DNA of 64,000 bases, from positions 1 to 64,000 of IMG/VR virus record IMGVR_UViG_3300037400_003374, one strand, 5' to 3'. This DNA is from a virus. Taxonomy: Duplodnaviria > Caudoviricetes. Position 1 is the stretch's first letter. Each line of letters starts with the position of its first letter. The translations under genes were made by a program, and so were the position numbers. The notes under the pieces were generated by a model. It saw only the letters and a list, made by a program, of their open reading frames with translations, ran no database searches and was not told the origin of the DNA. Below are positions 47,214 to 50,760 of this stretch, in pieces.

Positions 47214-47365
47214 TAGATAGGGGGAAACATTCCCCTATCTTACCAGATTGTACATGCCCGCATGCCGGCACGTCTGCCGGCGCGAGATTGACAGAAATTT
47301 AACAATCTTTTTTCAAAAAAGTACTTGACAAAAAATCCATTATCCCTTATAATACTCAATGTCAG

Positions 47366-47472
47366 GTGAGGGGAATAGCGCCTCCCTCACAAGAACCAGT
47401 GATTGAGGTGTGGCGACCCCAAGTAGACGAGGGTAACTCCTTGGAGAGGTAGAGTAGTCTTTCAGTCACTGG
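47366..47472 (+). ncRNA. Candidate stand-alone structured sRNA
   Basis: Own promoter at 47325; GTGAGGG/CCCTCAC hairpin, then 11-bp closing stem CCAGTGATTGA/TCAGTCACTGG around inner hairpins; no convincing ORF. Confidence 0.5.
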
Positions 47473-47544
47473 GACGAAAAAAATGCTTGACAAGCTGAGG
47501 AAATTATGCTATAATACTCACGTAATCAAGAGGAGGTGCAAGCT

Positions 47545-47783: not shown

Positions 47784-48113
47784 ATGAAAACTTCTTCTTA
47801 CGAAACTGTGTACGCTTTCCTGACCGCTAACGGATTTGAAGACGCCGAGATTCTCGCTGAGTTTGAGAAGGAAATTAACCGTAAGGCCGAAGTAAAGCAG
47901 GCCAAGGACACTCTGTACTCCGAAGCAAAAGCAATCGTGATGTCCGCTATTGAAGGCGCTTCCGCTACCATCGGTGAGATTTATGAAGCGGTTGAATCTG
48001 AACTCCCTGAGGGCTTCACCAAGGGCATGTTGCAGTACGCCATTACTCGCCTGTGGAAGGACGAACTTGTCAAGACTGAGGGCAAGGTCAATCGGTACTC
48101 TCGCAAGGTCTAA
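47784..48113 (+). CDS. Winged-helix-like protein, family W, copy 2
   Basis: Paralog of 45630-45950. Confidence 0.75.
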   Translation: MKTSSYETVYAFLTANGFEDAEILAEFEKEINRKAEVKQAKDTLYSEAKAIVMSAIEGASATIGEIYEAVESELPEGFTKGMLQYAITRLWKDELVKTEGKVNRYSRKV

Positions 48114-49412: not shown

Positions 49413-49681
49413 AGTTGGTTAGTCGGCGCTAACCGCGCCGGCAAGGCGATCCGCCGGCAGGGTTAGTTATGACTAACTAACCCGAAAAAATTTTTTTATA
49501 AAATGCTTGACAACTTTTCAAAAATATACTATAATAAACATGTTCCAAGGGACGAGGTCAAGAAAATTCCAAACTGAAAAAAAAGTTTGAAAAAACTCTT
49601 GACAGACTTCCAAAACTATGCTATAATAAGCACGTAATCAAGGGAAGGAAAACCCTAACAAACCAGAAAGGACACTAAATT

Positions 49682-50008
49682 ATGAAGAAGTCTACTTTTG
49701 AAGCTATCCGCACCGCTCTTACCAAACTGGGTTATGACAATGCCGAAGTCCTTGCCGAGCTGGACAAGGAAATCAACAAAGGCGCTGATGTCAAGGCTAA
49801 GAATTCTGAGGTCTACGAGTCCTTCCACGACATTCTGATTGACAACCTCGCCACCTCTCCCGCAACTTGTGGCGAGATCTACGAGGCCATCAAGGACAAC
49901 CTCCCTGAGGGTATCACCAAGGGCAAGGTTCAGTATGCTCTGACTCATCTGTGGCAGGATGAGATTGTAAAGATTGAGGGCAAGCCTAATACCTACCGCA
50001 AGGCATAA
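49682..50008 (+). CDS. Winged-helix-like protein, family W, copy 3
   Basis: Paralog of 45630-45950. Confidence 0.75.
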   Translation: MKKSTFEAIRTALTKLGYDNAEVLAELDKEINKGADVKAKNSEVYESFHDILIDNLATSPATCGEIYEAIKDNLPEGITKGKVQYALTHLWQDEIVKIEGKPNTYRKA

Positions 50009-50133
50009 GCCTTTCCTTCTTGGTGGCGAAAACTGACTCGCCTTAATTGATGCGTAAGCGCTCCGTATAGCCAAGAACCACGAGAGTTTCTGAAGGGCTT
50101 TCAGTGTGGCTAAACAACACAAGCCCTTTATAC

Positions 50134-50219
50134 GGGAATGAGGACGATCAGATAATTGTCAGGCCCCTCGTGGGTAAGCGCAAGGCGCCAAGTGGGTGCG
50201 ACTCCCACCATTTCCACCA
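50134..50219 (+). ncRNA. tRNA-like element with alanine identity (G3.U70, A73, encoded CCA) and degenerate anticodon arm
   Basis: Acceptor GGGAATG/CATTTCC-A-CCA; T arm GTGGG-TGCGACT-CCCAC; D arm GACGAT/ATTGTC; extra arm GCGC/GCGC; terminator directly after. Confidence 0.68.
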
Positions 50220-50220
50220 A

Positions 50221-50242
50221 CCGCCTTCGGGCGGTTTTATTT
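50221..50242 (+). terminator. Intrinsic terminator
   Basis: CCGCC-TTCG-GGCGG followed by a T-rich tract. Confidence 0.85.
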
Positions 50243-50502
50243 TCAAGGCGAGTTAGTCTCAACTAACTCCGCCGGCGATGTTAGGCGTGACTAACTAAAA
50301 ATTTTTTTCTCCAAACTATTGACAAAATTTCAAAACTATACTATAATACAATTGTTCCAAGGAACGGGGACGGACTTAGGAAGGTGAGATGTTAAAGGTT
50401 GCCATGAAGTTTCTGTAGTCCCAGGAAATGGAGTGGCCAGGTTTCTGCGTGGCTTTCCCTGTTACGGAAAAAGTCACGCCCATTATGAAAGGGGTAAAAA
50501 TT

Positions 50503-50760
50503 ATGAGTAAAATTCTGGATGTAGAATGGCAGTCTTGGCATGAATTATCAGTGAATGTAGATGAAATTGTTGATGATTGTAAATATAGAATGGAAAAGTG
50601 GCATGTCCCTCTTGAAGAAGTAGTAGATATTGCAATTGAAGGTTATGTTTCTGGATTCGATGATGCACTGTATTACAGTTGGAACGAGGATGCGCAGAAA
50701 CAGGTAAGAGACGCCGTATTGCAGGCTTTCGGCGGTGTGCAGCTTAGCATGTTTGACTAA
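50503..50760 (+). CDS. Small acidic hypothetical protein, 85 aa, with a long structured leader
   Basis: GAAAGGGG RBS; promoter at 50319; leader hairpin GCGTGGC-TTTCC...GGAAA-AAGTCACGC. Confidence 0.62.
   Translation: MSKILDVEWQSWHELSVNVDEIVDDCKYRMEKWHVPLEEVVDIAIEGYVSGFDDALYYSWNEDAQKQVRDAVLQAFGGVQLSMFD

Follow-up and report, generated by a model that had tools for sequence, protein, structure and literature searches.

TLD-only tmRNAs, in which the coding sequence is missing, are known from phage DS6A and, in forms of about 65 nt, from jakobid mitochondria and some plastids (PMC4131195, PMC11915505). In the literature compared here, the DS6A RNA is the sole anticodon-less phage RNA of the alanine type to be named, and it is treated there as a stripped tmRNA. 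Some of the allo-tRNAs and 8/4 tRNAs carry G3:U70 and are charged by AlaRS in E. coli (Mukai et al., 2017; PMC5389517). The same paper mentions tRNA-Other of Bacillus cereus, a pseudo-tRNA. Folds of tRNA type also end the RNAs of plant viruses (the 3' tRNA-like structures, RF00233) and the MALAT1 transcript (mascRNA).

The tRNA mimic described here lies in a stretch of phage DNA of 64,000 nt (the window), which is the first 64 kb of a 73.6-kb IMG/VR record judged 41% complete. Its structure and its relatives indicate a genuine, conserved RNA gene of a kind about which little is known. Like the DS6A RNA, it is phage-encoded and about 80-90 nt long, has a G3.U70/A73 acceptor and a T arm but neither an anticodon nor a tag frame, and is plausibly an inhibitor or competitor in ribosome rescue. 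However, the D-loop and pre-T-arm motifs of tmRNA are retained in the DS6A RNA, whose RF00023 score is 43.2 bits, whereas tmRNA models give the mimic 10-19 bits, and the mimic differs in its 6-bp D stem, two extra hairpins, encoded CCA and site in an mRNA 3' UTR. Judged by its sequence, the mimic resembles a TLD-only tmRNA in kind, yet it falls outside that group.

The other systems match it in part. Allo-tRNAs also have non-canonical bodies, occur in rumen Clostridia and phages, take alanine identity from G3.U70, and share the 8/4 layout with a long class of the mimic's relatives (113-158 nt). However, theirs are decoding RNAs with anticodon arms, whereas the window copy is 7/5 and no member of its family has an anticodon loop. 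As in alanine minihelices and microhelices, charging would depend on the acceptor end alone, although minihelices are synthetic. tRNA-Other illustrates that a chargeable tRNA-like RNA can have a non-translational role, but it is cellular, retains an anticodon arm and is charged with lysine. Plant-virus structures and mascRNA likewise terminate a viral or long transcript with a tRNA-like fold, behind a pseudoknot or stabilizing structure, and are substrates of tRNA enzymes. In RF00233, however, the acceptor arm is a pseudoknot and accepts Val, His or Tyr, whereas the acceptor of the mimic is a plain 7-bp helix, and, unlike RF00233 and mascRNA, some members of the mimic family are free-standing genes.

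The phage reads TAG as sense. With TAG so read, the total length of long ORFs rises about five-fold and a 5340-codon frame opens on the minus strand of the left half; with TAG as Q, a portal, a virion protein, a sigma factor and a helicase are recognized. The nearest cultured relatives of the portal (28% identity) are phages of Enterococcus, Bacillus and Lactococcus, and in addition Phass-1. The genome of Phass-1 is published; this phage recodes TAG to Gln, and its host is predicted to belong to Clostridia (PMC10607447). The right half of the window, which holds the mimic, is dense with small early genes and consensus TTGACA-17-TATAAT promoters. Complete relatives (177-190 kb) carry 11-28 normal tRNAs, including tRNA-Ala(UGC) and tRNA(CUA), in a separate cluster. 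A blastn search of GenBank phages with a 2.5-kb region gave no match.

Fold and transcription unit of the mimic

The mimic has the following parts, all on the plus strand.

50134..50219, +: tRNA mimic, 86 nt (from sequence, fold, descriptor and alignment)
50134-50140 pairing with 50209-50215, +: acceptor stem, 7 bp, third pair G.U (G3.U70)
50143-50160, +: D-like hairpin, 6-bp stem, loop CAGAUA
50163-50175, +: short hairpin at the anticodon position, at most 3-4 pairs, 5-nt loop
50178-50188, +: extra (triloop) hairpin, 4 bp plus triloop
50192-50208, +: T arm, perfect 5-bp stem, loop UGCGACU, G at position 55
50216, +: discriminator A73 (from sequence)
50217-50219, +: encoded CCA (from sequence)

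The original prediction had named most of these parts, and the 7-bp acceptor with G3.U70, A73 and encoded CCA (50134-50140/50209-50219), the T arm with G55, and the 6-bp D stem with an extra arm (50143-50160 and 50178-50188) are all present. It was also right that an anticodon arm cannot form: with only 3-4 pairs round a 5-nt loop at 50163-50175, a 5-bp stem with a 7-nt loop is impossible. A further claim, that G55 is matched by an AG in the D loop, did not hold up; the closest related copy, L009, also has G55, yet carries AGG in that loop. The sequence CCAA lies directly 5' of the T arm. The AlaRS identity set (G3.U70, A73, G1-C72, G2-C71) is complete. Among tRNA hallmarks, the 7-bp acceptor, the 5-bp T stem with its T loop, the discriminator base and CCA are found, but the anticodon part of the cloverleaf (5-bp stem, 7-nt loop, U33, purine 37) is missing from the mimic and from its relatives of all classes.

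In the MFE fold (-32.4 kcal/mol, z -2.0), the acceptor, D-like and T helices are recovered. A descriptor that combines a 7-bp acceptor with NCCA, a T-loop motif and a T stem of 5 perfect pairs matches the 64-kb window once, at the mimic, against 0.01 matches per 64 kb in simulated sequence of the same composition, and an origin of the mimic by chance is rejected at that expectation. The mimic contains no tag reading frame, and no ORF is conserved inside any family member.

Standard detectors pass over the element. ARAGORN reports neither tRNA nor tmRNA in the 64-kb window or in the whole 73.6-kb record, and Rfam at gathering scores has no match to the mimic. The tRNA model (RF00005) does not match it even at E<=10 in a 601-nt search; together with the ARAGORN result, this agrees with the earlier view that the RNA is not an ordinary tRNA. 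The only sub-threshold Rfam matches (E<=10) were to Tymo_tRNA-like (RF00233; 20.6 bits, cut-off 40), tmRNA_permuted (RF04321; 18.7 bits, cut-off 47) and beta_tmRNA (RF01850; 10.2 bits, cut-off 84). In the relatives, the tRNA model finds the 11-28 normal tRNAs and skips the mimics, and ARAGORN calls none of the mimics that lie downstream of the homologous gene (L008, L009, L012, L013, L015, L016, L020). A relaxed ARAGORN run (-ps80) returned 48 calls, which were discarded as false positives; one of them, a 'tRNA-Pyl(CUA)' at 48093, is a gene end plus terminator.

The mimic lies in the 3' UTR of a small early gene, in a unit with the following features.

49599..49627, +: promoter of the unit, sigma-70/sigmaA-type consensus, 12/12, TG-extended
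49682..50008, +: early gene for a 108-aa winged-helix protein, with the mimic in its 3' UTR (ORF list; family alignment A2)
50000..50013, +: stop-codon hairpin, with the TAA of the winged-helix gene in the loop
50019..50075, +: 3' UTR module A, predicted outer stem CUUGG/CCAAG round two hairpins (read from sequence)
50078..50129, +: 3' UTR module B, 52 nt, candidate H-type pseudoknot, ending 4 nt 5' of the mimic
50219..50245, +: intrinsic terminator, 7-bp GC-rich stem (50219-50236), UUCG loop, T run

From these signals, the window mimic is read as co-transcribed from a consensus early promoter, with a terminator at its end. No promoter comparable to that at 49599..49627 occurs at 50009-50134. 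The strong terminator that had been noted 3' of the mimic is present; it starts on the last base of CCA, and the same terminator stands behind the copies in L009, L012 and L102. The AF2 model of the winged-helix protein has a pLDDT of 89.9, and a fold search with it returned only generic winged-helix matches (E>=0.086). Pfam and PHROGs gave no informative family for this protein or its neighbors. A paralog of the gene at 47784-48113 has only a plain terminator downstream.

The RNA elements between gene and mimic also recur. The stem of the TAA-in-loop hairpin is changed yet still paired in L008, L009, L012, L102 and others, and module A is nearly identical in L006, L007 and L015. Module B is found in at least eight related loci, twice in L016 and alone in L019 (alignment A4). 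Its candidate pairings, CCACG with UGUGG and AAGGGCUU with AAGCCCUU, with an invariant UAAACAAC loop, were assigned by inspection, the MAFFT alignment being out of register. The 3' UTRs of the winged-helix gene family look like mosaics of exchangeable RNA modules.

Other stretches near the mimic may also specify RNA. At 47320-47480 and 49507-49590 of the window, consensus promoters are followed by ORF-free stretches (about 110 and 50 nt), possibly small early RNAs. Behind the promoter at 50319-50347 lies a conserved leader of about 150 nt (50350-50502). A gene with an in-frame TAG at 50389-50760 was considered and rejected: relatives carry TGA and TAA stops in that stretch, so the real start is probably near 50503 and 50350-50500 is left as conserved leader.

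Relatives, body classes and covariation

Relatives were sought in viral contigs with the 108-aa protein and then with its family alignment, which gave 31 loci. Six further loci have a tRNA-shaped RNA ending in ACCA directly 3' of the homologous gene.

L009, 85 nt: near-identical, with the build of the window copy
L015, 83 nt: 3' of the homologous gene
L008, L012, L013, L020, 112-114 nt: 3' of the homologous gene

In all six syntenic copies, G1-C72, G2-C71, G3.U70, A73 and CCA are invariant, and pairs 4-7 differ. Since these loci were found via the protein, the invariance of the identity set is no artefact of the search. Folds of tRNA type that are non-alanine or CCA-less also occur in this 3' UTR slot (L058:1830-1960, L066:1925-1994, L016:3512-3572). 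The L016 RNA is an odd 61-nt version with C3-G70 and the end ACGA; that of L066 scores 29.4 bits on the tRNA model and has a CCAGGGA loop that lacks U33. Such occupants suggest that the slot may select tRNA shape rather than alanine. In L011, only a remnant, CCACCA plus terminator, is left at the place of the mimic.

A pattern scan for the 3' end added further long-class copies (L102, L103, L110, L119, L121, L126, L144, L147) and a 158-nt form of the class (L090). The pattern fixes the T arm, U70, A73 and CCA, whose invariance among these copies is therefore no evidence, and leaves G3, the 5' strand and the remainder of the RNA free. The copies occur in two kinds of context. Those of L103, L110, L119, L144, L090 and L172 possess a TTGACA-17-TATAAT promoter of their own, whose end lies 11 nt upstream of G1; those of L102, L121, L126 and L147 come after the stop codon of a member of the same gene family. 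Contigs L172 and L173 (24 and 47 kb) have long-class copies, one for each kind of context, and are binned with MAGs of Acutalibacteraceae (Clostridia). The binning may be a hint to the host, or the phage contigs may be mis-binned with it.

With a model of the long class (R1), an unannotated 95-nt mimic was found in Phass-1 (OQ749652.1, 129238-129332, minus strand; L167:939-1033). Its architecture is that of the window copy: the stems are 7/5, the hairpins comprise one of 6 bp with a 6-nt loop, a central one and one with a triloop, and G3.U70, A73 and CCA are all present. This body is common to the window, L009 and Phass-1 only. The long class is laid out as 8/4 (acceptor/T) and the window copy as 7/5. 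At least three different bodies (83-158 nt) stand in homologous slots of TAG-recoded relatives, and an anticodon loop (7 nt, U33, R37) is found in none of the body classes. Neither class has a copy in the complete relatives G001 and G002, which marks the mimic as accessory. Further searches added no copies: blastn with a 119-nt copy and the Phass-1 copy gave nothing beyond Phass-1 itself, exact-pattern scans of viral and metagenome contigs for the D hairpin of the short class returned the L009 contig and otherwise chance matches only, and a second model, R2, found only true tRNAs in the relatives.

Pairing is preserved while sequence changes. In the short class (window, L009, Phass-1), 18/18 pairs form in 3/3 sequences, and eight of the pairs are changed on both sides, against 0-2 in slid controls; in this three-way alignment, only pairs 1-3 of the acceptor are invariant. 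In the long class (12 sequences), 99% of cells are paired, and six pairs show two-sided changes, against none in slid controls. Here G3.U70 is present in 12/12, and pairs 4:69, 5:68 and 7:66 covary. The arm that replaces the anticodon arm of the long class is itself conserved: stretches of six and three pairs are separated by a conserved internal loop and capped by a GNRA tetraloop, and three of the pairs covary. R1 scores L090 at 60.7 bits, L015 at 41.9 bits and the window copy at only 9.5 bits, so the two classes are linked mainly by position, flanks and architecture.

Conservation and covariation argue that the mimic is maintained by selection and is not decaying; decay in relatives was an outcome that would have gone against the original prediction. 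The general picture that these comparisons support is that TAG-recoded phages of Clostridia carry a family of interchangeable mimics, with covarying helices and exchanged bodies but a constant alanine-accepting end.

Explanations of the element

On balance, and with modest confidence, we favor the explanation that the gene is functional and yields a tRNA mimic that is processed, can be charged with alanine and does not decode; this RNA would act on factors that read the acceptor end. The earlier proposal of a chargeable, non-decoding RNA is upheld by the invariant identity set, the swapped bodies and the lack of an anticodon loop in relatives; the charging itself we infer.

One alternative, which we regard as unlikely, is that the mimic is mainly a cis-acting signal for RNase P processing or stability, similar to mascRNA. 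It would give the mRNA a defined 3' end, protected by the pseudoknot or the stop-codon hairpin, and the released RNA would be a by-product. The site suits such a role, since in the window and ten relatives the RNA lies in the 3' UTR, 4 nt past the pseudoknot-like module or directly past the stop-codon hairpin. So does the presence in the same slot of folds that lack alanine identity or CCA (L016, L058, L066). An encoded CCA helps bacterial RNase P and fits the same role. However, copies with their own promoters have few leader bases, which leaves no upstream mRNA to process. G3.U70 and A73 are unnecessary for RNase P, yet except in L016 they are invariant in the copies found by gene neighborhood. 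The paralogous gene, moreover, manages with a plain terminator.

It is equally unlikely that the mimic is a true degenerate tmRNA, that is, a TLD-only, tag-less mini-tmRNA descended from ssrA that works, like the DS6A RNA, via SmpB binding. The presence of G3.U70, A73 and CCA, the absence of a tag reading frame, the weak match to tmRNA_permuted (18.7 bits) and the documented precedent of DS6A (PMC4131195, PMC11915505) are in its favor. The resemblance of the 3' end to tmRNA, to which the original prediction drew attention, stands insofar as the 19-nt T arm and the next two bases are identical to those of two bona fide permuted tmRNAs from viral contigs. However, the same T-loop, UGCGACU with its unusual G55, is also found in a genuine tRNA-Phe(GAA) of a related phage (L168:1501-1576, minus strand), so the T arm seems native to the tRNAs of this phage group and is no pointer to tmRNA ancestry. 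The scores of 10-19 bits on tmRNA models compare poorly with the roughly 43 bits on RF00023 of known TLD-only RNAs, namely that of DS6A (L155:28478-28560) and a 74-nt RNA of contig L083 (43.3 bits), and against long-class copies the tmRNA models give nothing at E<=1. The structure also differs. In the mimic, a 6-bp D stem and two more hairpins take the place of the unpaired D loop and helix 2 of tmRNA; CCAA stands 5' of the T arm instead of the conserved GAC-type junction; and the 8/4 acceptor/T layout of the long class is unlike tmRNA. A two-piece (permuted) tmRNA, in which Rfam paired the 3' strand with GGAAAUGG at 50424-50431, was considered separately and rejected, because this 8-mer belongs to a part of the leader that is not kept in relatives and because the strand at 50134-50140 covaries with the 3' strand.

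That the mimic has no function, whether as a dead tRNA gene, the scar of a recombination or the remnant of an attachment site, is very improbable. It would accord with the silence of all detectors, the absence of the mimic from some complete relatives, and the CCACCA-plus-terminator remnant of L011. However, the helices are intact and carry compensatory changes across phages whose portals are only 28% identical, the arms that stand in for the anticodon arm are conserved structures in their own right, with GNRA loops, and some copies have dedicated consensus promoters. The chance expectation of 0.01 per window is also against it, and covariation largely refutes the idea.

An unusual decoding tRNA, for example an aberrant suppressor for the recoded TAG, is scarcely credible: although the phage reads TAG as sense and the 73.6-kb fragment has no suppressor tRNA, the sequence contradicts a suppressor, with no CUA in any loop and no 7-nt loop with U33 and R37 in any body class, the relatives have an ordinary tRNA(CUA) in their tRNA cluster, and in a record that is 41% complete this cluster probably lies just outside.

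Possible action of the mimic

As a processed, chargeable RNA, the mimic would be made in a few steps. RNase P would cut at G50134; in relatives, G1 is preceded by a U-rich leader with U at -1. The terminator trailer would then be trimmed back to the encoded CCA. The stable hairpin of the terminator stands directly behind CCA, and its removal is necessary for charging. AlaRS charging needs the acceptor end alone, so the host AlaRS would be expected to charge the RNA, and by textbook tRNA biology EF-Tu could bind it. The mimic can probably be charged with alanine and does not read codons. Without an anticodon, the charged RNA would not be accommodated in normal decoding. Such an RNA is barred from decoding and is likely to serve by engaging factors that recognize the acceptor end; in trans, it would act as a mimic or competitor of the alanine-accepting end.

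Which factor would be engaged can be suggested only tentatively. The target that we favor is tmRNA-SmpB rescue, with which the mimic could interfere, although we hold even this to be doubtful. A TLD-only RNA of the DS6A type reportedly inhibits tmRNA (PMC4131195, PMC11915505), and in an RF1-less strain, viruses that contain UAG propagate poorly because of tmRNA rescue at the unassigned codon (PMC6207430). The predicted timing, an early RNA ahead of TAG-rich late genes, also speaks for this target. Against it, the D stem and extra arms are unlike the SmpB-bound TLD of tmRNA. Genes for SmpB, RF-1 (class-I release factor) and AlaRS are absent from the five relatives searched, and so no such phage gene ties the mimic to any pathway. 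Some other function has a lesser, still appreciable chance. Less likely again, and on a par with a mainly cis-acting role, is a decoy for defence toxins directed at the acceptor or at CCA, for which the exchange of bodies round a fixed acceptor end can be counted, as it looks like an arms race. A role as a dedicated alanine donor, one of the earlier suggestions, is most improbable. Others, a decoy for anticodon nucleases and a target of T-box or RelA sensing, are unlikely because the mimic has no anticodon. The tie once drawn between the mimic and a rewired termination is circumstantial.

If these strands are combined, a more specific scheme can be drawn, which is speculative and, as a whole, improbable. 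In TAG-recoded phages of Clostridia, an early, alanine-charged, anticodon-less mimic would silence the rescue or quality control (tmRNA-SmpB or a related alanine-dependent pathway) with which the host meets ribosomes that pause at in-frame UAG, and so enable the code switch; the swapped bodies would reflect an arms race with the targeted host factor.

The family appears to be a tRNA-derived build of the idea behind the DS6A RNA, kept by selection in a group of stop-codon-recoded gut or rumen phages, in interchangeable versions and with very strong early promoters. The group includes the published genome of Phass-1, where the mimic is unannotated, and standard annotation overlooks these genes completely. 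If the mimics are charged and act on ribosome rescue or on defences directed at the acceptor end, they would constitute a new class of RNA-based phage counter-measure and would offer a direct handle on how recoded phages deal with host surveillance of UAG.

Several other small RNAs were seen in the contigs searched. The L083 RNA (L083:4391-4464, minus strand) is a 74-nt TLD-only mini-tmRNA with the acceptor GGGGGUG/CACCUCC, directly past the stop codon of a gene. RNAs of its type are present on 17 small viral contigs (5-20 kb; L086, L087, L089, L092 and others); they are of the DS6A kind, apparently common, and unannotated. The tRNA cluster of one complete relative contains an 84-nt 8/4 tRNA-like RNA that lacks alanine identity, with G3-C70, the end ACCU and no normal anticodon arm, which ARAGORN does not call (L158:1501-1584, minus strand; G004 176963-177046). 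L003:1000-1110 and L004 (same sequence) have a T arm identical to that of the mimic; this RNA, also uncalled by ARAGORN, is maybe an odd tRNA, in which an anticodon-like stem closes an 8-nt loop (CUUAGACA).
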